Shown one piece after another: positions 1-24,107 of a stretch of 28,657 bases of DNA. The stretch's first letter is position 1, and each line of letters opens with the position of its first letter. The DNA is from Candidatus Woesearchaeota archaeon (GTDB taxonomy: Archaea; Nanobdellota; Nanobdellia; Woesearchaeales; ARS49): the NCBI GenBank assembly GCA_023266895.1, contig JAHFOI010000013.1, forward strand, positions 1 through 28,657. The letters run 5' to 3'. The position numbers were made by a program, and so were the translations under genes. The notes beneath the pieces were generated by a model. That model worked only from the letters and a program-made list of their open reading frames with translations, was not told the DNA's origin and searched no databases.

Positions 1-3000
1 TCACAAGTGACCATGGCAGTCTTGAGTTGCTCTTCAGTTTTTTTGGTATCCAGCACAACTCCTTCGTATTGTTGGTATTCTGATTGCAAGCCTGCGAGTT
101 CTGCATTAATGCTTGCTTCTTGGACTGCGTGGAGGTTGAGCTCAAATTCTTCTTTACGACAGTGTTCTTCTTGTTTGAAAACTTGATTTTCTATGTTAGT
201 AATTGTGTCTGAGAGCACATTACGTTGCTCAAATAAGTGTTTGCATTGTGCATAAAATTGAGCAAGTTCTTGGTCTTTAGCATGCGCACGTGTTTCTTGT
301 TCAGTGACCTTATTAGTGAGTTGTACCTCTGATTCTTTGGCAAGTTTTTGCTCTTGATGAATTGACTCAATAACCGTCGTAGCGTTGGTTAATTCTTGTG
401 CTCCTGATTCTATACGTTGGACAATGGATTTTAGTTCTGCATCTAAAGTTATGCGTTGTTCTGTGAGTTCTTTGTTTTTTTGTTCATACGCATTGAGTTC
501 TGCAAGAATGGTTGGATTTCTAATTTGACTTAGTTTTTCTCGTAACTCTTGTTTTTTTATTTTAAGGCCAGTCAATGCCTGAGTTTTTTCATTGACCAAG
601 TCTTCAAACCTGGAAAGTTCTTTTTCTGCAACAGCATGCTGTTGTTGGAGTTCTTGTTTGTATTTTTGGTTTGCATCAAGGTCGCTGGTTTCAAGATGAA
701 GTGATTTTTCTGTTTTGATGATGTCGCCTTCAAGGTTCGCTTTTACTTCGCGTAATCGTGTTATTTGTTCATCATGATCTTTTCTGCTTTCTTCTAAACG
801 CTGGATTTTGGTATCAAGAGCAGCAATTTCATTATTGGCGCAAGTGAGTTCGTCAGCAAGTCCTTTTTCTTTAAATCCTGCTATTTTTTTGTGACGATAA
901 CCGCCAATCATTGCGCCTGAAGGCTCGCATAAATCTCCTTCCAAAGTGACCATTCGCGTGGTGCCAACACCAATTTTTCTGGCAATTTCTATAGTATCAA
1001 CAACAAGAGTGTTGCCAAAGACATGACTAAAGACTGCTCTGAATTTTGGGTCAAACTCAATGAGGTCTATTGCCATGCCACGCACTCCTTTTTCATTAAG
1101 TAATTTTTTAGTTTCTTCGCGGCTGACAACAGGCCGTATTTTGTTGAGTGGTAAAAATGTTGCTATGCCAAACTGGTTTTTTTTCAAAAACTTAATGCAG
1201 TTTGCGGCAGTTTTATCATCTTCAACAACAATGCTTTGGAGTTTTTGTGCTGCGGCAACTTCGAGTGCTTGGGCGTATTCTTTGTCTGCCTGTCCTAGTT
1301 CTGCGACTGTACCGTAAATTTCTCCAAGCTGGTTTTTGTTTTCCAAGACTTTTTTTACTGCAATGTTTTCTGCGATTTGGTCTTGGACGCTGGAGTGTTT
1401 AATCTCTAGTTTAGCAGCGTGTTCTCTGAGTTGTACTACGCGTTGTCTGCTGTGCGCAAGTTCTGCTGCATGCTTACTGTCCGTATTAAGCAGTTCATTA
1501 AGTTCAAGGATGAGCTTTTTGAACTGGTCTTTTTTCTTTTTGAGCAGACTTACTTCTTCTTTGTTTTCATCTTCAAGATGTTGCACTTTCGCGATTTGTT
1601 CATCAATGGTTTGAAGTTGGAATTCTATTTTGTCTTTTTCTCTGAGCAAGGTTTGTTGTTGTTCTCTGAGCTGTTGAAGTTCTTTTTGAAGTGTTTCGCT
1701 TGTTTGATCCAACAGTGTTATTTCTTGTTCTAAGGTGTTGGTTTCTTCGCCAAGGGCATTGCGTTTTTTGAATGCTGCGATTGCACTTGTGAGTTCATTG
1801 AGCTGGTTGTGAACTACCTTTTTAGTTTGCGTAATCTCTTGGTGTTGGTTTTTTATTTGAAGGTGTGCTTCTTCAAGAGTTTTTTTGGTTTGCTGAAGTT
1901 GTTTGATGCGCTGTCCTGCTTTTTGTGCATCAAGGCTGAATGCCTGTGCTTTTGTGCGGTCTGTTGCAATATCAATGCGTAGTTGTTCAAGTTCTTTTTG
2001 CATGCACACTTGTTCTACTTCACCTTTTTGCTCAATTTCTTGAGACAATTGTTTAATCCTCTCTCGGCCAAGCAGTATCTCTTGGCGCAGGGTTTGTATT
2101 CGTGAAGTGCTACGCGCAATATTTTCTCTGTACACACTTGTTTTTTGTTCAAGACTTTGCTGGTCTTTTTTCTTTTTTTCCATTTTCTGATTACAATAAC
2201 TTGCTTTGTATGTTTTGAGCTCATCAAGAAGGTGTTTGTAGGTAATTGCTTGATCTCTGTCTTTTTTGAGGTCTTTCAAAAATCCTTCACGTTCTCTGAG
2301 TATGATGCCTGCCTGGCTGAGTTTTTCCTCAACTTTTTGCAGATCATTTAGGGCATGTTGTTTTTTTTCTTCATACGTTGAAATACCTGCGATTTCCTCA
2401 ATAATCATGCGTCGTTCTGTAGGACTCATCTCAACCAATCGTATGATGTCTCCTTGCAGAATGATGTTGTACCCGTCAGGATTTATGCGTGCTGCTGCAA
2501 GCATTTCAAGTACTTCTTGTCGCGTGCGTGTTTTGCCATTTATTTTGTACTTACTTGTTCCATCTGAGCCAACAATTCTGCTAAGCTTTACTTCATCATC
2601 TGATAGAGGAAATGTGTTGTTGGAATTGTCAAAGCAAATGCTTACTTCTGCTTGTTTTGAAGGGTTTTTTGTCTTGCCTCCATTGTAGATAAGGTTTGAG
2701 CTTTTTTCTGCTCTGAGCTGCTTGCTGCTTGATTTACCTAAGACAAAGCAGAGCGCATCTAACACATTGCTTTTTCCTGAGCCATTAGGCCCTAGTATTG
2801 CATTAAAGTCTTCGCCAAGTAAAAGTTCTGTGCGTTTGCCAAAGCTTTTGAATCCATCAAGCACGAGTTTTGTTATTCGTGTGGATTGAACTGAGGAGCG
2901 TACGGGCAGAACACGTGATGCAGCTTGCGTAGTGCTTTGATCGCTAGGCAGTGCGCCAGAAATTGCATGGGAATGATCAGGGGCAATTACACTACTTCCT

Positions 3001-3011
3001 TCATCAGTCAT
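1..3011 (-). CDS. smc: Structural maintenance of chromosomes protein SMC; the first ~1003 codons are present and the 3' end runs off the window
   Basis: The minus-strand frame is open from ATG 3011 to the window edge. It is absent from the ORF track because no stop lies in the window. My translation gives the Walker A region LLGEDFNAILGPNGSGKSNVLDALCFVLG, long heptad-rich coiled-coil arms, and a hinge (LGEIYGTVAELGQADKEYAQALEVAAAQKLQSIVVEDD...GAMIGGY) at about 900-1330 in the same frame. A TATA-like CCTTTAAATAGC lies about 30 nt upstream. Confidence 0.9.
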   Translation of the reverse strand, partial: MTDEGSSVIAPDHSHAISGALPSDQSTTQAASRVLPVRSSVQSTRITKLVLDGFKSFGKRTELLLGEDFNAILGPNGSGKSNVLDALCFVLGKSSSKQLRAEKSSNLIYNGGKTKNPSKQAEVSICFDNSNNTFPLSDDEVKLSRIVGSDGTSKYKINGKTRTRQEVLEMLAAARINPDGYNIILQGDIIRLVEMSPTERRMIIEEIAGISTYEEKKQHALNDLQKVEEKLSQAGIILREREGFLKDLKKDRDQAITYKHLLDELKTYKASYCNQKMEKKKKDQQSLEQKTSVYRENIARSTSRIQTLRQEILLGRERIKQLSQEIEQKGEVEQVCMQKELEQLRIDIATDRTKAQAFSLDAQKAGQRIKQLQQTKKTLEEAHLQIKNQHQEITQTKKVVHNQLNELTSAIAAFKKRNALGEETNTLEQEITLLDQTSETLQKELQQLREQQQTLLREKDKIEFQLQTIDEQIAKVQHLEDENKEEVSLLKKKKDQFKKLILELNELLNTDSKHAAELAHSRQRVVQLREHAAKLEIKHSSVQDQIAENIAVKKVLENKNQLGEIYGTVAELGQADKEYAQALEVAAAQKLQSIVVEDDKTAANCIKFLKKNQFGIATFLPLNKIRPVVSREETKKLLNEKGVRGMAIDLIEFDPKFRAVFSHVFGNTLVVDTIEIARKIGVGTTRMVTLEGDLCEPSGAMIGGYRHKKIAGFKEKGLADELTCANNEIAALDTKIQRLEESRKDHDEQITRLREVKANLEGDIIKTEKSLHLETSDLDANQKYKQELQQQHAVAEKELSRFEDLVNEKTQALTGLKIKKQELREKLSQIRNPTILAELNAYEQKNKELTEQRITLDAELKSIVQRIESGAQELTNATTVIESIHQEQKLAKESEVQLTNKVTEQETRAHAKDQELAQFYAQCKHLFEQRNVLSDTITNIENQVFKQEEHCRKEEFELNLHAVQEASINAELAGLQSEYQQYEGVVLDTKKTEEQLKTAMVTC

Positions 3012-3076
3012 ACCAAAAATTGTCAGTCTAATGCTATTTAAAGGTTTGCTCGCCAAAAAAAGGGTTGGCTCTTGTT

Positions 3077-5074
3077 TCACTCTTTTTTTTCGCAGAGTTG
3101 TGCTGTGAAAAATGCAAGTACATCTGCTTGTGTTTGCAGCATAAGTGTAAGTCCTGAACCTGGTCCGTGTCCTGCATCTTGTTGAGTTCGTAAAAGTACT
3201 GGATGACAGGTGTTGGTTTGTTGCAGAATTGCAGTCATTTTGCGGGCGTGAAGTGGGTGGACACGTGTATCATGTGTACTTGTCGTAAAAAGTACGGGAG
3301 GATATTCTATTCCTTGTTTGACATTGTGGTATGGACTCCAGTGTTTGAGCCATCCAAATTCATCTGGTTGTTCTGGATCACCCCATTCATGCACCCAGCG
3401 TGCTGCAATAAGAAATCTTGGATACCGAAACATGTCGAGCACTGGCACTTGACATACGACGGCACTGAACAAATCTGGTCGTTGAGTCATGCACGCTCCA
3501 ACTGTAAGTCCACCATTGCTTCCTCCAATAATGCCCAACGTGCTTGCAGCTCCTTGTTTCATGAGCTGTTCTCCTACTGCAATAAAATCATTGAATGTGT
3601 TTTGCTTGTTGGACAATGTTCCTTGGTCATGCCATGTTTTGCCAAATTCTCCTCCTCCTCTGATGTTTGCAAGAGCAAAGATTCCTCCTTGATCAAGCCA
3701 GGGTTTTATCTGCGCAAGATAATATGGAGGCACAGAAACTCCATACCCGCCATACCCTGTAAGTATTGTAGGTGCAGGTGTTTGAGTTTTTTTTGGTTTG
3801 ACAACAAAAAAAGGCACGCGTGTTTTATCCTTTGAATTTGCCCACTGTTGACTGATATCATACTCTTCTGGATTAAAAATATTTTCTGTTTGTCTCCACA
3901 CTGTTGTTTTTCCTTGGTCTACTGAATAAATCTTCTTTGCAGTCACAAACCCAACTTGTGCGTAAAAAAATTCTTGTTCTTGGGCGCGCGCCTTTATTCC
4001 AGGACAGGTGCTAAAAAGAGGCAGTGCAAGTTGACCTTTGGAAATTCCTTGGTGTGTAAACAACAATACTTCGGAGGAACAATTATCTAAGTATCTTGCA
4101 ATCAAAAAATCTTTGCTCACATTAATTCCTTCAAGCGGTTTTGATTCTGGGACAAGAATAGGCCACGAGATAATTTGTGTTGGGAGCTGTGATATGGGCA
4201 CTGCTCGAATACAAAAGTTTGGCGCCTGATAATTTGTGCAAACAAAGACTTGGCTATCAGTAATAACTGGGCTGGCAAGTGCGTGTAATGATTCAGAAAG
4301 ACAAGTGATTTTTTCTTCAGCATACATGAAAAGTTCATTGGCATGCCAATGTTGTTGGACAGTAATTAAAAGGATTTTTCCATTTAGTGATATGCTGAGT
4401 TCAATCATGTCTTCTTTTGGCCTATCTTTGCCAAAAATAAGCACATCCTGCGCACAATCCACGTTAAGTTTGTGAAGGTAGACACGAGCATAATACTGTT
4501 CATCACCTGCTGGAACACTTCCTGGTGCAGGATGTCGCGTGTAATAAAAGCCAGTTTCATCAGCAAGCCAGGCAACTGATGCATGACGTGTGTGCTTGAT
4601 GTGCTCAATATCTTTTTCTAGTTCTAAGGAATACACATGCATTGTTGATTGTTCATCGCCTTTTTGTGAAAGCCCATACGTTATGTACTTGCCTGTTGGC
4701 GAGACAAACCAGAAATCAAGGTTTGTTGAAGGTTGTGTGTTTGGATCAATGAGACAGTGTGGCGTTCCTTGCAATCCTTCAGAGAAATACAGTGCAAGGT
4801 GGTCTTGTCCTTTTTTTCGTTCTTCCCAAAAGTAGTGCTTGCCTCGTTTGCTTGGTGGAAAAAAGGCTGTTGATTCAAATGCTTTTTTGAGTTCTGAAAA
4901 ATATTGTGCAGGATGTTGGGGTGCGAGCACTTCTTTTGTTAGTTGATTTTGTGCAGCAATCCATGCATGTACTTCAGGAGTTTCTTCTTCAAGCCATTGA
5001 TAGGGGTCTGTGATTGTGCAGCCATTCAAAGAATACGTGAATTGGCGTCGAGGTGTTAAGGGACTTGATTGCAT
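3077..5074 (-). CDS. Prolyl oligopeptidase (S9A family serine peptidase)
   Basis: This is a 665-aa ORF. It has an N-terminal propeller-like region, the catalytic Ser motif GGSNGGLTVGA, the Asp region TSTHDTRVHP and the His region DAGHGPG. This layout is typical of prolyl endopeptidases. Confidence 0.85.
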   Translation of the reverse strand: MQSSPLTPRRQFTYSLNGCTITDPYQWLEEETPEVHAWIAAQNQLTKEVLAPQHPAQYFSELKKAFESTAFFPPSKRGKHYFWEERKKGQDHLALYFSEGLQGTPHCLIDPNTQPSTNLDFWFVSPTGKYITYGLSQKGDEQSTMHVYSLELEKDIEHIKHTRHASVAWLADETGFYYTRHPAPGSVPAGDEQYYARVYLHKLNVDCAQDVLIFGKDRPKEDMIELSISLNGKILLITVQQHWHANELFMYAEEKITCLSESLHALASPVITDSQVFVCTNYQAPNFCIRAVPISQLPTQIISWPILVPESKPLEGINVSKDFLIARYLDNCSSEVLLFTHQGISKGQLALPLFSTCPGIKARAQEQEFFYAQVGFVTAKKIYSVDQGKTTVWRQTENIFNPEEYDISQQWANSKDKTRVPFFVVKPKKTQTPAPTILTGYGGYGVSVPPYYLAQIKPWLDQGGIFALANIRGGGEFGKTWHDQGTLSNKQNTFNDFIAVGEQLMKQGAASTLGIIGGSNGGLTVGACMTQRPDLFSAVVCQVPVLDMFRYPRFLIAARWVHEWGDPEQPDEFGWLKHWSPYHNVKQGIEYPPVLFTTSTHDTRVHPLHARKMTAILQQTNTCHPVLLRTQQDAGHGPGSGLTLMLQTQADVLAFFTAQLCEKKE

Positions 5075-9783: not shown

Positions 9784-10455
9784 ATCAGCACGCACACTAA
9801 GAGCTTTTGAAGCCTAAAACGTTTTTTATTCTGGCATTATGGAAGAAAGAAGTCTTTCTCTCACTTTTTGTTTATCTTTTGTAAAAAGTTCAACAATTAA
9901 GCACAAAAATAACGCTCGCAACATGGTGCCTAACACTTTTTCAACCCAAATCTGTGATTTTTTCATCCAGCACCCACCCCAAACCAGCCAACTCAAAAAA
10001 AAAGAACTCAGTGTAAAATTTTTCTTAAAAAAAACACTCACTTTTGCAGAACAACAAACTGCGCAAAGAGACAACACGCAGCACCCATCACCACCACTAC
10101 CACCACCCACACAAAAACACACCAAAAAAGTTCTACACCCACAACAAACAGAACAATCTGCCAAAATACCCTAATTTATGAGCAAGCCCGCAGATCTCAA
10201 AAACACCTCACAAAGCAAGACAGAACAAGCACTCACTTTTTACTCACACAACACCAAAAGCCCACCCAAAAAAAAGATTGCAAACCATTGAAAATAAACT
10301 CAAAAAGAACTAATAAAAAACATCCATCCCAAAGCTACCATCACGAAAATGAGCTGACAAAATAATTATGCTAAAAGAACTGTAAGCAAATATCTCTTGC
10401 AAAATAAGCACTACAGAAAATAGCCCCAAAAAAAATCCACAAAACATAAACCGTC

Positions 10456-10965
10456 AAAAATTCCGACGTAAAAACAAAAACATAACCCCAAAAAATTAAT
10501 TTTGCCAACAAAGTAAGAATATAAAAATTAACAAAAAAAAGCTCAAAAGCACAACAAACAACAATAAAATAATAAGTATATGATATATCTTTTTTAAAGG
10601 TCAAGAATCATGCAGAGATTATGCCAGAACAAACATTTCTGCAAAAAACTAAGTCTTCTGGCACAACTCCGGCCAAGTCGGAATAAAAAGAGAATTAGTT
10701 AAAAAATCCCGACAAAACAGGTGAAGCCCCTTTTTGGACAGTACCCAGGTTCCACACCAAAACAACTCCTTTGCTGCAAAAACTAGAGAGAACAAGAACA
10801 ATGTCAGGATTTTCTCAGAAATCAGTAGTGTTTACGGCCATTTCGGAATTTGTTCAAGTTTTTGCCAAGGTTTTAGTCAAGCCACAAAAAAAGTCTTGTG
10901 CAACAGCTCCTAATGCAAAAATCACTTGTTTTCTGCTTTTTTTGACGACTGATGTCGGAATTTTA
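10456..10965. repeat. Cluster of short GTCGGAATTTT-like motifs in both orientations
   Basis: Five copies were read by eye. They are 10456-10467 (-, GTCGGAATTTTT), 10677-10688 (+, GTCGGAATAAAA), 10701-10713 (-, GTCGGGATTTTTT), 10842-10852 (+, TTCGGAATTTG) and 10954-10965 (+, GTCGGAATTTTA). A degenerate copy GTCAGGATTTTC lies at 10803-10814. The first copy sits on the far side of a very AT-rich stretch (about 10486-10600) from the other copies. Confidence 0.6.
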
Positions 10966-11000
10966 AAAACATTTTTATACCAGTTCTTGTTTGCAAAAGT

Positions 11001-11516
11001 ATGAAAGTGCAACTTGAGCATAAAGAGCCTGGTGATAATGCAACAGCTGATGAACTTGCAAAAGTGTTAATCACGCGATTTGGTTTAGCTCCAAGAAAAA
11101 GTGATGCGAGTGCACAATTTCATCGCTTGCTTCTTGAACTTTCTGAACGTAAAAAGTCTGCAAATCGTGACAAACGTCCTGAAGTTGCCGTCATGCCTGT
11201 TGAAGTAATGGGTTCTTTTGCTGGCATTCGTCGACAAACAATGTATGACTATTTGCATCGCTGGCTTGACTTGCAGATTTTGAAAAAAACAAGTTTTGTT
11301 GCATCAGGCAAAGTGATTATTGGATACGAACTCAATGGTCAAAATATTGAAGGTGCATTTCGCAAAGCTGAAACATGCATTAAGAATCATTTAGATGCTA
11401 GTTTTAAGCTTGTGGAACAGCTTCAGTCAGAGGTAAAAAAGGAAAAGCTTAGGGCTGGAACTCCTGATGAGTCTGAAACCCCTGAATCCACTGTGTCAAC
11501 TGGCAGTCTGCCTTGA
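11001..11516 (+). CDS. Small putative winged-helix DNA-binding protein
   Basis: This is a 171-aa ORF. The central segment MPVEVMGSFAGIRRQTMYDYLHRWLDLQILKKTSFVASGKVIIGYEL reads as helix-turn-helix plus a beta wing. The tail is acidic and Ser/Thr/Pro-rich. A TATA-like TTTTTATACC lies about 25 nt upstream. I recognise no specific family. Confidence 0.5.
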   Translation: MKVQLEHKEPGDNATADELAKVLITRFGLAPRKSDASAQFHRLLLELSERKKSANRDKRPEVAVMPVEVMGSFAGIRRQTMYDYLHRWLDLQILKKTSFVASGKVIIGYELNGQNIEGAFRKAETCIKNHLDASFKLVEQLQSEVKKEKLRAGTPDESETPESTVSTGSLP

Positions 11517-12018: not shown

Positions 12019-12130
12019 AGTGTTACCTCATGACAACAACCAAAATTTGGGCAACAGTGCTTGCTTATATTCTTTTCGGTTCACATTTTTTTATCGACGA
12101 AAAAAAGTGCCAGAACACCTACACCCCCCC

Positions 12131-12144: not shown

Positions 12145-12903
12145 TCACGGATGCTTGCGTGTCTGCAGGTACACCTTATTTTTTCCTTCAGCAAGTACCG
12201 TGAGTGATTCGTCATGTTCTAATTCTTCTAAGAGCCTGTAAAAACTGCTTTTTGAGCACAATCCTTGTTCATCAACAATGGTTTCTCTGAGTTGTTGTCC
12301 TGATATTTTTCCGTATTTTTGAATTAAGCTAAGCAGTAATCCTTTAACATATTCTTTGCTGTTTTGCGTGAGTTTTTTCAGTACTTTTTCCTTAAATCTG
12401 CTCACTTGTGAAGTTCGTGTTCCTGGTTCAAATTGAGGCATAACAGAAGCTGTAACATGAGCCATGCTTTCTTGATGAACAAGATGCTGATTATGAATCT
12501 GTTCATCATGAATGCGTTCTTCATGCATGCGTTCTATTTGTGTGCGGATTGTGCGCAATTGCTGAGGTAAATCTTGTAGTTTAACATCAATTTGTTCTAC
12601 TTTTGCGCGTTGGAATTCTAAAAGACTTACTTTTTGTTCAATAAGTCGTATTCTTTCGTTCATCCCTTCATAATCATACAAGCCGTCAATAAGTAGTTTC
12701 ACATCATTGCGTGTTTTTGGCACTTGCTCAATTTGACGTCGGAGTTCTTCAATAATTCGCCCTTGCTCTTGACGTTGCTGGTCCAGATACATCACCCATT
12801 GCCCAAGTGTTACTATATCGCTTTTTACTCTGTCAAAACTCTGTGTTGCATTGCGATCAAACAGCTCCAATCGTGCATCAATTTCTTTCTGAAAAAACCA
12901 CAT
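12145..12903 (-). CDS. Long coiled-coil protein with C-terminal winged-helix domain
   Basis: This is a 252-aa ORF. About 150 aa is heptad-rich and Gln/Glu/Arg-rich (EELRRQIEQV...LEFQRAKVEQIDVKLQDLPQQLRTIRTQIERMHEE). The winged-helix region follows: KGLLLSLIQKYGKISGQQLRETIVDEQGLCSKSSFYRLLEELEHDESLTVLAEGKNKVYL. The promoter abuts the TGGGAC repeat array. Confidence 0.55.
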   Translation of the reverse strand: MWFFQKEIDARLELFDRNATQSFDRVKSDIVTLGQWVMYLDQQRQEQGRIIEELRRQIEQVPKTRNDVKLLIDGLYDYEGMNERIRLIEQKVSLLEFQRAKVEQIDVKLQDLPQQLRTIRTQIERMHEERIHDEQIHNQHLVHQESMAHVTASVMPQFEPGTRTSQVSRFKEKVLKKLTQNSKEYVKGLLLSLIQKYGKISGQQLRETIVDEQGLCSKSSFYRLLEELEHDESLTVLAEGKNKVYLQTRKHP

Positions 12904-12922
12904 CTTTGCCAGAAAATATTCA

Positions 12923-12934
12923 GTCTATTTAAGC
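12923..12934 (-). promoter_or_regulatory. TATA-like box for the 252-aa coiled-coil/wHTH gene
   Basis: The minus strand reads GCTTAAATAGAC about 25 nt upstream of ATG 12903. This is the spacing seen at most genes in the window. Confidence 0.45.
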
Positions 12935-12940
12935 TTTTTG

Positions 12941-13088
12941 TCATTCCCAAACTCATTCCCAGGACAGTCCCAAGACCATCCCAGGACTATTTTGGGACTA
13001 TCTGGGACTGACTTTAAGACGACAAATCTCATTCCCAGAGACTATAATGGGACTGAACTGGGACTGTCCCAGGACAGCTCTGGGACTA
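12941..13088. repeat. Dense phased array of TGGGA(C)/(G)TCCCA sites (iteron or operator-like)
   Basis: TGGGAC occurs on + at 12993, 13003, 13048, 13059 and 13081. TCCCA (the same core on -) ends at 12949, 12961, 12972, 12983, 13037 and 13071. The longer unit TCATTCCCA occurs three times (12941, 12953, 13029). The palindrome GGGACTGTCCC lies at 13060-13070. Neighbour spacings are 10-12 bp or 22 bp. Confidence 0.8.
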
Positions 13089-13143
13089 ACCGAATTTCTT
13101 GCAAAAAATGCGCAAAACTGTCAAAAAACAAACAAGCCCACCC

Positions 13144-13180
<37 letters not shown>

Positions 13181-13521
13181 CAAAACAGCTAACCAAATCA
13201 TTTATAAACAAGAACTACTTTCAAAAGCCGGGGAAATAAGGGTAAGAGCAGTTAAATAAATTACACAAAAACCAAAAACTGTCAAAGCAACTAAATTTAA
13301 CTGCAATACGCCAAGCAATGATCAATCAGCACCAGGCTTATTCAAGGAACGTAGCCTGCAATTCCCGTAGCAACCAATGCCCAACAAACCCTAAAAAAAC
13401 AAGCTTTAAATCAGCCACACTATCAAAAGTGAGAGTTCACACTACAAAAAACACCAAAAACAAAGTCTCAAAATAGTGCCTAACCACTTTTTAGAGTAAT
13501 ACAAAGAAAGATTTGGTCAAA

Positions 13522-14187
13522 ATGCCAGAAAAAAAACTTAATCAAACCGCAAATCACGCAATTGTTTGTTCTAAAGGCCAGCTCGCAGTGATTTTATCAC
13601 AAATCAAAGGGTTTGCTGAAGCAAAAGTGAGTCTTGAACAATATCAAACAGATTCTGAGACTGCTGCAACAGTGCTTTGGCACGCAAACATGATATGCGA
13701 TTTAGCAAACAAAAAAATCATTGACCTTGGTTCGGGTACAGGAATCTTAGGGTTAGGCACCATGTTATTAGGTTGTTCTGAAGTAACTTTTGTGGAAAAA
13801 GACGAAAATGCATTAAAACTGTGCAAAATCAATGCCAAAAACCTCAAAAGTGAGTTCTCAGATGATTTTCTGGTATCATTCCAGAATAAAGATGTTTCCG
13901 AAGTTCTAGGTTCTTTTGATGTTGTTGTCATGAATCCTCCTTTTGGCACACACGAAGCTCATGCTGACAGAGTTTTTTTGCAAAAAGCATGTTCTCTTGC
14001 ACCAATCATTTATTCATTTCATAAGGCAGCAACTTTCGCATTTGTTCAAGCTTTTGCCAAAGATAATGGTTTTGCAATTACGCACAATTGGCAATTTGAT
14101 TTTCCTCTTAAACAAACCATGAAATTTCATACAAAAAAAATCCAACGAATTACAGTTGTGTGCGTGAGATTAGAAAGAAAACAATGA
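13522..14187 (+). CDS. METTL5-like class I SAM-dependent methyltransferase (COG2263 predicted RNA methylase, NPPF motif)
   Basis: The protein has LEQYQT near the N-terminus, the SAM motif IIDLGSGTGILGLG, and the catalytic VVMNPPFG. ATG 13522 is preferred over the TTG at 13513 used by the ORF track. Confidence 0.8.
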   Translation: MPEKKLNQTANHAIVCSKGQLAVILSQIKGFAEAKVSLEQYQTDSETAATVLWHANMICDLANKKIIDLGSGTGILGLGTMLLGCSEVTFVEKDENALKLCKINAKNLKSEFSDDFLVSFQNKDVSEVLGSFDVVVMNPPFGTHEAHADRVFLQKACSLAPIIYSFHKAATFAFVQAFAKDNGFAITHNWQFDFPLKQTMKFHTKKIQRITVVCVRLERKQ

Positions 14188-14574: not shown

Positions 14575-15084
14575 TCACTCAGCAGGTCGTGGTCCAAGTT
14601 CTTTAACTGCTACATCTACCAATTGAACAAATACCTCATCTGACACTTGTATGCCTGCTTTTATGAGTGCAAACGCAAGTGCTTTGCCATTAACTTCTTC
14701 AGGAATGTCTGCATCAACAGGCTGAAATCCCAGTAAGTTTTTGAGTGTAACATCGCACAAGTGTCCGTTGTTTAATGCAAGTACTGCAGGTTTGTCTCCA
14801 ATCATGCAGGTGTGCTGTTCAATATTGCAACGCACTGAATTAAGCGTGTGTACGTGTTCTTCTTTGGAAAATCCATGCTGTTGTAGTTCTCGTGATACAA
14901 GGGTTTTGAGGCATGTTGCGAGGCTACCTGTGAGTTCTGGCGCGTCAAGTGTGTGTATTTTTGTTGAGGTAACAAGTCTTCCTAAATATTTGTGTACTTT
15001 TTGTCGTGGTCCTTGTGCAGTCCACTCATTTCTCACAAGATATGCATATCTTGCGTTTTTTATTGTTTTCACGCGAATAAACAT
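14575..15084 (-). CDS. Hypothetical protein with a basic N-terminal beta-hairpin-like motif
   Basis: This is a 169-aa ORF from ATG 15084; the ORF track begins at an upstream TTG at 15105. The N-terminus is MFIRVKTIKNARYAYLVRNEWTAQGPRQKVHKYLGRL. I recognise no family with confidence. Confidence 0.5.
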   Translation of the reverse strand: MFIRVKTIKNARYAYLVRNEWTAQGPRQKVHKYLGRLVTSTKIHTLDAPELTGSLATCLKTLVSRELQQHGFSKEEHVHTLNSVRCNIEQHTCMIGDKPAVLALNNGHLCDVTLKNLLGFQPVDADIPEEVNGKALAFALIKAGIQVSDEVFVQLVDVAVKELGPRPAE

Positions 15085-15146
15085 GCTAGTGCCTAAAAGT
15101 CGCAATAGATAAATCTATTGTTCAATATCAGCGTATTACTGCTCTG

Positions 15147-21866: not shown

Positions 21867-21931
21867 ACATAAGAGTGTTAATTCAGAGTATAATAAGTTT
21901 GCGTTGCGTACGAACTAGTTTTGTGCTTATA

Positions 21932-22024
21932 CGCCCCTGGCCAGACTCGAACTGGCGACCTCGCGGTTTCTTCCGATAATTCAAGCGGTAACAGCCGCGC
22001 GCTCCACCGCTGAGCTACAGGGGC
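21932..22024 (-). tRNA. tRNA-Asn (anticodon GUU) with a 21-nt intron at the canonical 37/38 position
   Basis: The minus strand reads GCCCCTGTAGCTCAGCGGTGGAGCGCGCGGCTGTTA[CCGCTTGAATTATCGGAAGAA]ACCGCGAGGTCGCCAGTTCGAGTCTGGCCAGGGGCG. Removing 21968-21988 restores a 72-nt cloverleaf with anticodon stem CGCGG/CCGCG. Confidence 0.85.
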
Positions 22025-22049
22025 AGCTTGTCTGTTCGTACAGGCGAGG

Positions 22050-24011: not shown

Positions 24012-24107
24012 GCCTCGGTAGTCTAACTTGGACAGGACATAGCCCTGCGGCAAATCAAAAAGATTTGAAGAAAGGCTGTAGTGCGGGTTCAAATCCCGTC
24101 CGAGGCG
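24012..24107 (+). tRNA. tRNA-Arg (anticodon GCG) with a 22-nt intron at position 37/38
   Basis: The sequence is GCCTCGGTAGTCTAACTTGGACAGGACATAGCCCTGCGG[CAAATCAAAAAGATTTGAAGAA]AGGCTGTAGTGCGGGTTCAAATCCCGTCCGAGGCG. Removing 24051-24072 gives a 74-nt cloverleaf. The anticodon stem is TAGCC/GGCTG with one G-U pair, and the T-loop is TTCAAAT. Confidence 0.8.

Follow-up and report, generated by a model that had tools for sequence, protein, structure and literature searches.

The subject of this study is an array of short TCCCA/TGGGA units at positions 12941–13087 of a 28,657-nucleotide stretch of archaeal DNA (contig JAHFOI010000013.1 of a Candidatus Woesearchaeota archaeon; hereafter the window), which lies directly upstream of the gene for a 252-amino-acid protein, cc252. 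Its closest described counterparts belong to partition and replication systems of plasmids and to archaeal operators and segregation systems. ParR is a small ribbon-helix-helix protein, and TubR, which acts in the type III partition systems of Bacillus and Clostridium plasmids and of phage c-st, is a winged-helix protein. The Rep systems of iteron plasmids (pPS10, F, R6K) use a winged-helix binder, and their distal direct and promoter inverted repeats couple a structural role with autorepression. Plasmid iterons measure about 17–22 bp, recur at a spacing of about 22 bp and lie beside an AT-rich unwinding element and host initiator boxes, and the Rep proteins consist of two winged-helix domains and no coiled coil. 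Archaeal autoregulated winged-helix repressors (MDR1, Lrs14-type and TrmB-type) have their operators at the B recognition element (BRE) and TATA box, and known archaeal operators comprise one to a few sites. SegB and AspA of pNOB8 are archaeal segregation DNA-binding proteins that work with ParA-type ATPases encoded alongside. R1 parC comprises two sets of five 11-bp iterons flanking a promoter; ParR binds cooperatively with about one dimer per 11-bp iteron, and it both represses and builds the partition complex (PMC2241845). Upstream of tubR, tubC is built from split blocks with two kinds of iteron, and the TubR complex covers the promoter (PMC6009700).

The Woesearchaeota array resembles each of these systems in part. 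As in R1 parC–ParR, short 11-bp direct repeats form two blocks at the promoter region of the operon of the candidate binder. In contrast to R1, units of both orientations are present, a distinct palindrome stands between the blocks, and the promoter is located at the end of the array instead of between the blocks; a ParM-like motor gene was not found nearby, and the locus is part of the chromosome and conserved throughout an archaeal order. The candidate binders also differ from ParR in being predicted winged-helix proteins with long coiled coils. With TubR–tubC the array shares its position upstream of a gene for a predicted winged-helix protein, the split blocks and the two kinds of element. 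It differs in the archaeal host and the BRE/TATA promoter, in the lack of a TubZ GTPase gene and of a detectable sequence relationship, and in the helical N-terminal region of about 140 residues that is predicted for cc252 and that TubR lacks. The likeness to iteron-plasmid Rep systems consists of the location at the promoter of a winged-helix protein gene, while the 11-bp units, the missing Rep family match and the housekeeping chromosomal neighbourhood (rpoL, uppS, ribosomal protein genes) set the two apart. Like the archaeal winged-helix repressors, the locus places a winged-helix gene beside presumed sites that touch or bracket the BRE and TATA box of a putatively leaderless gene, but with 10–27 phased units over 150–500 bp it exceeds known archaeal operators. 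Unlike SegB and AspA, cc252 has no ParA-type ATPase encoded alongside. Because the defining motor gene was not found, we describe the array as working like a partition system, not as being one. As a whole, it is set apart from known operator and centromere arrays by its chromosomal location in archaea, its order-wide occurrence, its composite make-up and the lack of a motor gene. We lean towards reading it as a cooperative autoregulatory operator or iteron array, a docking platform for the winged-helix protein or proteins encoded downstream, with cc252 as the candidate binder. The array and the promoter that it adjoins consist of the following parts.

12926–12940, minus strand: core promoter of cc252, with a BRE-like CAAAAAG (12940 to 12934) and the TATA box CTTAAATA (12933 to 12926)
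12941–13012: module B, the promoter-proximal sub-array of six units
12943–12949 (ATTCCCA), 12955–12961 (ATTCCCA), 12966–12972 (AGTCCCA) and 12977–12983 (CATCCCA), plus strand: units of module B
12993–12999 and 13003–13009, minus strand: opposite-orientation AGTCCCA units of module B
13029–13087: module A, the distal sub-array
13031–13037 (ATTCCCA) and 13065–13071 (TGTCCCA), plus strand: units of module A
13038–13044 (AGTCTCT, degenerate), 13048–13054, 13059–13065 and 13081–13087 (AGTCCCA), minus strand: units of module A

An earlier, sequence-only reading of this DNA had named eleven TGGGA/TCCCA sites, and all eleven were confirmed. On the plus strand, TCCCA starts at 12945, 12957, 12968, 12979, 13033 and 13067, and TGGGA at 12993, 13003, 13048, 13059 and 13081, which gives spacings of 12/11/11, 10 and 11/22 bp. 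The higher-order repeats that it had listed are present as well: TCATTCCCA occurs three times (12941, 12953, 13029), CTGGGACT also three times, and the palindromes GGACAGTCC and GGGACTGTCCC are both found in the array. The pentamers are clustered and not enriched window-wide, as the whole window holds 34 of them compared to 32.5 in shuffles, with 11 concentrated in 141 bp (12945–13085) and 23 distributed over the other 28.5 kb. The density is far above chance, as had been claimed. The highest count per 145-bp window in 1000 first-order Markov simulations was 4, against the 11 observed, and the Poisson probability of at least 11 is about 1e-18. Heptamers of the form A[G/T]TCCCA number 12 in the window, a total reached in none of 100 shuffles, and nine of them are in the array. 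The assertion that the sites share one face of the helix holds for neighbours and fails over longer distances: the period is 11 bp and not 10.5, placing neighbouring sites on the same face and letting the register drift by about 120 degrees over seven units.

The array directly meets the core promoter of cc252. Its last unit ends at 12941 and the BRE starts at 12940, in agreement with the earlier placement of the array just upstream of the TATA box of the coiled-coil/winged-helix gene. The TATA box is situated about 30 nt before the ATG at 12903, and the order on the gene strand is units, CAAAAAG CTTAAATA, about 22 nt, and ATG. This TATA-to-ATG spacing implies a cc252 mRNA that would be leaderless or near-leaderless. 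The BRE/TATA block is unchanged in four close relatives. Since some automatic start-codon calls fall inside arrays, promoter counts across species are confined to the 52 loci with a recognisable TATA box. A TTTAWATA-like box starts 28–31 nt before the ATG in 39 of these; the last pentamer usually lies 10–13 bp upstream of the TATA box, and a pentamer is present at most 22 nt upstream of it in 36. Furthermore, 11 loci (16 when one mismatch is allowed) carry a TGGGA(C) no more than 14 nt downstream of the TATA box and before the start codon, so that the core promoter is bracketed. Sites that directly flank the BRE and TATA box, as expected of an archaeal autoregulated winged-helix factor with an operator at its own core promoter, are thus a feature of this locus.

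The same arrangement recurs throughout the lineage. With one genome scanned per species, 80 further loci were identified at 30–39% protein identity, nearly all labelled Woesearchaeota or Nanoarchaeia. In nearly every locus the densest 150-bp cluster of pentamers is positioned 130–400 bp upstream of the start of the tblastn match to the cc252 homologue. Within the 200 bp that precede the gene there are 3.95–3.98 pentamers per 100 bp, compared to about 0.12 in about 500 kb of flanking DNA; in these flanks, and in the rest of the window with its 23 pentamers, the motif is thus not comparably dense. Neighbours of the same orientation are most often 11 bp apart (244 pairs), followed by 10 bp (78) and 12 bp (29), with harmonics at 22, 33, 44, 55, 66 and 77 bp, and the unit consensus across loci is c-A-(G/T)-TCCCA-(a/g). 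We also considered a 22-bp hetero-unit in which ATTCCCA and AGTCCCA alternate and discarded it, as no alternation was seen. Over 84 loci, 739 units read TCCCA on the gene strand and 215 read TGGGA, and a greater fraction of the TGGGA than of the TCCCA units falls in the final 100 bp before the gene. The number of exact pentamers per locus has a median of 10.5, an interquartile range of 8–16 and a maximum of 27.

Alignment of the intergenic region with relatives likewise bears out the array, which is the best-conserved part of that region. Three-way identity amounts to 0.85 across 13030–13069 in module A and to 0.62–0.78 in module B, where the site cores are invariant in the alignment with three relatives; the remainder of the intergenic region reaches 0.25–0.45. 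Close relatives share identical unit cores, spacer core and BRE/TATA, and differ from one another in having whole 11-bp units more or fewer. The array is therefore real, strictly phased, under purifying selection and locked to cc252 across an archaeal order.

A scan of metagenomes for three AKTCCCA units at an 11-bp period returned at least 120 matches. Among those listed, 14 carry a cc252 homologue, each with the array beside the gene. A fifteenth, L303, was missed by tblastn; there the contig edge falls just inside the start of a cc252-type gene. The other matches listed consist of unrelated satellite DNA, repeats within coding sequence, and AATTCCCA iterons of a plasmid-like kind. On the unrelated metagenome contigs L207 (reverse complement, 4290–4360), L254, L270 and L302, which have no cc252 homologue, 11-bp iterons of the form aa(c/t)aATTCCCA are repeated in tandem; those of L207 adjoin an apparent end of an open reading frame (ORF). 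They look like plasmid or phage replication iterons, and an ATTCCCA core at an 11-bp period appears, to judge from these repeats, to have arisen in other systems too. Scanning viral contigs for TCCCA-N(3-5)-AKTCCCA-N(3-5)-AKTCCCA gave 119 matches, none with a cc252 homologue and mostly tandem repeats in coding or satellite DNA. Convergent TAGTCCCA / TGGGACTA arrays around a TATATA core occur on the IMG/VR contigs L135, L144 and L188 (e.g. 849–1000) and also on L100 (11017–11170); their design is superficially like that of the Woesearchaeota array, and the fetched DNA contains no cc252 homologue. Searches of the literature yielded nothing on the array element or on the cc252 protein family.

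Three genes downstream of the array encode the candidate binders.

12145–12903, minus strand: cc252, 252 amino acids
11449–12018, minus strand: cc189, 189 amino acids, with its own TATA box and Shine-Dalgarno sequence
11001–11516, plus strand: hth171, 171 amino acids, a putative helix-turn-helix (HTH) protein with a weak HTH_Crp_2 match

The AlphaFold2 model of cc252 (mean predicted local distance difference test score, pLDDT, 85.6) consists of helices at residues 2–140, a disordered linker at 141–167 and a C-terminal winged helix at 169–247, with block pLDDT means of 89–96 over residues 181–250. The model of cc189 (pLDDT 74.6) shows the same layout, with a long helix at 23–80 and a winged helix at 92–154 that is MarR/ArsR-like (Foldseek E about 4e-4). 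The predicted structures of both gene products thus contain a winged helix of the DNA-binding type, and the module proteins are predicted to have DNA-binding folds. For cc252, no family match was obtained in Pfam, NCBIfam, PHROG, PADLOC or PDB sequences, and Foldseek relates its winged helix to generic folds (Hop2 WH, PadR, Fur, cullin WHB, BlaI, MarR). The family is lineage-restricted and uniform in architecture, with 570 word-indexed matches, and forms 622 clusters when grouped at 50% identity. The recognition helix of cc252, KSSFYRLLEE, hardly varies among 85 sequences, with a mean top-residue frequency of 0.83 compared to 0.48 for that of cc189. In 80 of 83 loci the next gene downstream of cc252 is cc189, and hth171, the third member of the module, was found in 47 loci. 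No paralogous relationship among cc252, cc189 and hth171 was detected by BLASTP or hhalign. A kleisin (ScpA-like) identity of cc252 was considered because the protein combines a helical N-terminus with a disordered linker and a winged helix at the C-terminus, and because an SMC gene is located 10 kb from it. It was dismissed, as there is no ScpA_ScpB Pfam match, the PDB profile search returned coiled-coil noise only, and SMC is outside the conserved neighbourhood. Orc1 and Rep identities found no support either. The genes of hth171 and cc189 are convergent, with a 3' overlap of 68 bp (11449–11516). This overlap is kept in relatives (L002 5368–5435, L327 11224–11255), which suggests antisense or termination coupling.

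The module contains a second class of DNA element, a palindrome; the window carries a degenerate copy of it and two further sequences that may be related.

13013–13027: inter-sub-array spacer TTTAAGACGACAAAT, a degenerate copy of TT(T)ATCG(T/A)CGATAA(A)
12090–12102: TTTATCGACGAAA, a palindrome-like element just upstream of the cc189 promoter
10944–10960, plus strand: GACGACTGATGTCGGAA, immediately upstream of the hth171 TATA box (10973–10980)

Within arrays, the palindrome TTATCG(T/A)CGATAA separates the blocks of units. The exact 13-mer occurs inside the arrays of 23 of the 84 loci (20 with a central T, three with a central A), and TTATCGTCGATAA, on either strand, in 28 of 84. Its position is mostly 75–125 bp before the ATG, and some loci have two copies. 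Close relatives carry TTTGTCGTC/TTTGTCGACGA at the position of the spacer. Elements of the ATCG(T/A)CGA type are also found in the cc252–cc189 spacer of 11 of 75 loci at no more than one mismatch, and TTTATCGACGAAA is tentatively linked to the array. In many relatives (L010, L014, L038, L061, L065) TGTCGG(A/G) precedes the TATA box of hth171, often in two direct copies at a distance of about 21 bp. This motif is distinct from the TCCCA units and may, tentatively, be a half-site related to the palindrome. With two classes of element, TCCCA units and palindrome, at least two recognition specificities therefore act on the module, and the interspersed palindrome TTATCGWCGATAA is probably read by a second module factor, cc189 or hth171. 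Neither the palindrome between the sub-arrays nor the two further putative DNA-binding proteins had figured in the sequence-only reading.

Because the same arrangement recurs in more than 80 Woesearchaeota species, the array is almost certainly a multi-site docking platform for protein, a candidate function that we derive from sequence. The most likely candidate binder of the A(G/T)TCCCA units is cc252, since its recognition helix is nearly as constant as the TCCCA core, whereas that of cc189 is variable. We postulate that coiled-coil-mediated dimers or oligomers of cc252 would place their winged helices, held by a flexible tether, on one unit after another at the 11-bp spacing, and that the protein would polymerise cooperatively along two or more blocks of units. 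The complex would extend to the BRE and TATA box, bracket them in one subclade, and thereby control its own operon's promoter; negative autoregulation is the most probable form of this control. The assignment of proteins to units, the cooperative binding and the direction of the control are points that we infer. An additional structural role on the chromosome is possible because a simple repressor would need far fewer sites than a locus has (median about 10, maximum about 27), and also because the array of L070, a Woesearchaeota metagenome-assembled genome (MAG), stays in place with cc252 inverted. The same complex may thus also serve as a structural landmark on the chromosome, by analogy with ParR–parC and TubR–tubC on plasmids.

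Several points weigh against this operator reading or parts of it. The best Foldseek E-value for the cc252 winged helix, 2e-3, is weak and generic, and winged helices can also serve as protein-binding modules. The module offers three candidate binders, namely cc252, cc189 and hth171. Sites directly upstream of the BRE can in archaea also mean activation, which bears on the sign of regulation. Finally, in L070 (2203–5152) an inversion affects cc252 alone, which makes cc252 and cc189 divergent. The array still lies between the p176 gene and cc252, whose 3' end now faces it. Either the rearrangement is genuine and the array has persisted regardless of the cc252 promoter, or the assembly is in error here. 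The sequence-only reading had proposed iterons, autoregulatory operators or a centromere-like site. Its phased putative protein-binding array at the cc252 promoter stands and recurs in about 80 species; the three functions are not told apart, with the operator fitting best, a replication iteron disfavoured by the lack of Orc1/Cdc6 or Rep within 10–15 kb, and a centromere coming without a motor gene.

Two other readings also treat the array as a protein-binding site. A centromere-like or chromosome-organising site, at which a complex of the coiled-coil protein would tether or segregate the chromosome via a partner encoded elsewhere and promoter control would be a by-product, is possible though unlikely; it overlaps with the operator reading rather than excluding it. 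Split blocks of short direct repeats with an 11-bp period upstream of the gene for a small DNA-binding protein are what plasmid centromeres display (PMC2241845, PMC6009700), and here eleven units at 12941–13087, with equivalents in about 80 species, lie immediately upstream of the operon of the candidate binder. There are more sites than an operator needs, L070 retains its array after the cc252 inversion, and the roughly 140 residues of long cc252 helices could bridge to other structures. In addition, no second cluster appears within ±3 kb of the 84 loci or in the 28.7-kb window. Against a centromere, Pfam revealed no ParA/ParM/TubZ-type NTPase gene in the same operon, among the window ORFs, among the conserved neighbours or, on three contigs of 395–505 kb, at up to 10 kb to either side; there is no evidence for an origin-proximal locus, and SMC, about 10 kb off in the window, does not belong to the conserved module. 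The stronger form of this idea, in which the array is a chromosomal centromere or single-copy architectural landmark of Woesearchaeales and a cc252 polymer would couple the chromosome to the segregation or division apparatus with no motor alongside, we consider improbable. It is also unlikely that the array is the operator of a different regulator, be it hth171, cc189 alone or an unlinked factor, with the cc252–cc189 operon under external control and cc252 not the binder. Such a role would suit the winged helix of cc189, which is more convincingly of the regulator type, or hth171 as the third HTH candidate, and the palindrome as a second class of motif shows that more than one factor acts. However, the TCCCA core is invariant order-wide, in keeping with the near-invariant recognition helix of cc252 and not with the variable one of cc189, and the arrays follow cc252 specifically, as in the 14 cc252-bearing matches among the metagenome matches listed and in L303.

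A replication origin, with the repeats as iterons or mini-ORB-like initiator sites in a long intergenic region, is very unlikely. Short direct and inverted repeats in an unusually long intergenic region (0.6–0.85 kb) of a compact genome would be in line with it, as would the organisation of iteron plasmids, where direct repeats are distal and inverted repeats lie at the promoter. The GTCC-NN-GGAC dyads of the array may loosely resemble the dyads of origin recognition boxes (ORB). On the other hand, Orc1 footprints exceed the length of an 11-bp unit, the locus shows no switch in cumulative GC skew, which rises to either side of it, and no distinct AT-rich unwinding element is present between the inverted blocks, where the spacer measures only about 15 bp. 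Orc1/Cdc6 or Rep genes were not found within 12–15 kb in the window, in the neighbourhood of 83 loci (±3 kb) or within ±10 kb on L327–L329. The make-up of cc252, with one predicted winged helix and long helices, the 11-bp period and the missing Rep match in Pfam, NCBIfam and PHROGs likewise do not correspond to an iteron-type Rep origin. A canonical initiator exists elsewhere in the lineage, since 206 of 208 complete Nanobdellota genomes contain Orc1/Cdc6 (preprint 10.64898/2026.05.13.725050). The last alternative, that each sub-array is an imperfect inverted repeat folding into a long functional RNA hairpin or DNA cruciform, we reject as hardly credible. The folding of the array is indeed much more favourable than that of shuffled sequences (RNA −75.8 kcal/mol, z = −7.4; DNA z = −5.1), a strong score that arises because the units converge. 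The balance of forward to reverse units in the promoter-proximal module varies among close relatives (2:4, about 4:3, 4:2), so that the balance is not conserved, and the 739 to 215 bias between orientations points the same way. Many species have direct repeats only, including several AT-rich ones with essentially nothing else and no hairpin potential, and it is the sequence and not the pairing that is conserved. Rfam returned no match to the array at the gathering score; besides tRNAs, the gathering and permissive scans gave only a sub-threshold, spurious microRNA-precursor match on the array.

The window itself is an archaeal contig of about 39% GC from an uncultured host lineage. Among its genes and ORFs are an ATP-dependent DNA ligase-like ORF, RNase HII, the Rpr2 RNase P subunit, RpoL and tRNA genes. 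The intergenic region of 609 bp (12904–13512), of which the array takes up the promoter-proximal 150 bp, separates cc252 from a divergent methyltransferase gene, beyond which a further conserved neighbour follows.

13513–14187, plus strand: small class-I methyltransferase gene
14575–15105: p176, an orphan protein of 163–176 amino acids without a family match, conserved neighbour

Across species the conserved order is uppS, the 163–176-amino-acid orphan, rpoL, an RNA methyltransferase gene, the array, cc252, cc189, the convergent hth171 and PAC2, with a XerC-like recombinase gene sometimes preceding PAC2. On long contigs this neighbourhood is embedded in a block of ribosomal-protein, Spt4 and Rpo7 genes. 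In three close relatives (L002, L006, L007; 63–67% protein identity) the array is kept, as is the order methyltransferase <- ~650 bp -> cc252 -> cc189 <- hth171. Homologues of p176 are located at about −2.2 kb in 61–66 loci; the orientation of p176 in the window is flipped relative to most other species. The SMC gene, which is no member of the conserved module, runs off the end of the window and accounts for a seeming ORF gap at 1–3076.

Non-coding stretches at 9784–11000 and 13090–13512 flank the three-gene module. Both are strongly G-poor on the plus strand (A 42–46%, C 23–25%, G 12%), and neither has a match in Rfam. Gaps of 0.8–1.2 kb are kept on both sides of the module in relatives, which is unusual for compact DPANN genomes, and the 430 bp beside hth171 are 69% identical to L002. 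Between the array and the methyltransferase gene lies an (AC)n microsatellite of about 14 units (13146–13173); it is missing at the equivalent position of L002, L006 and L007 and is thus probably hypervariable. A TATA-like block is located at about 13197–13215 (minus strand gtttataaatgatttggt). The block TTTATAAATG(C/A)TTTGGT is conserved in all four close relatives; it is mid-intergenic, about 110 bp upstream of the array, and could be a second promoter, either for a transcript crossing the array or for an unannotated small RNA. Short blocks at 13420–13485, near the methyltransferase start (e.g. gaactctcactttt, ggcactattttgagact), are conserved among four close relatives as well and may form a separate promoter or regulatory element of the divergent gene; 'gaactctcacttt' recurs upstream in the distant AT-rich loci L025, L029, L054 and L081. 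Elsewhere in the window, Rfam places tRNAs of 93–96 nt at 21931–22025 and 24012–24107. ARAGORN assigns the former to an undetermined type with a 4-base anticodon and misses the latter; presumably each of these archaeal tRNAs contains an intron.

For most lineage-specific genes of the uncultured DPANN archaea, Woesearchaeota among them, no function has been assigned. The locus brings together an exactly delimited DNA element and an orphan protein family that spans the order and counts at least 600 sequence clusters, and the module is testable in vitro with a 160-bp fragment and three small proteins. The 11-bp register, together with the gain and loss of whole units among relatives, also provides a natural system for the evolution of iteron arrays. 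If the complex only autoregulates, the array would represent an unusually elaborate archaeal operator, and cc252 a new family of winged-helix regulators with a known motif. If the complex should also organise or segregate the chromosome, this would be the first centromere-like element proposed for the phylum, and one without a canonical motor. The reading as a centromere or landmark, if true, would amount to a previously unrecognised type of archaeal chromosome-handling system in DPANN.

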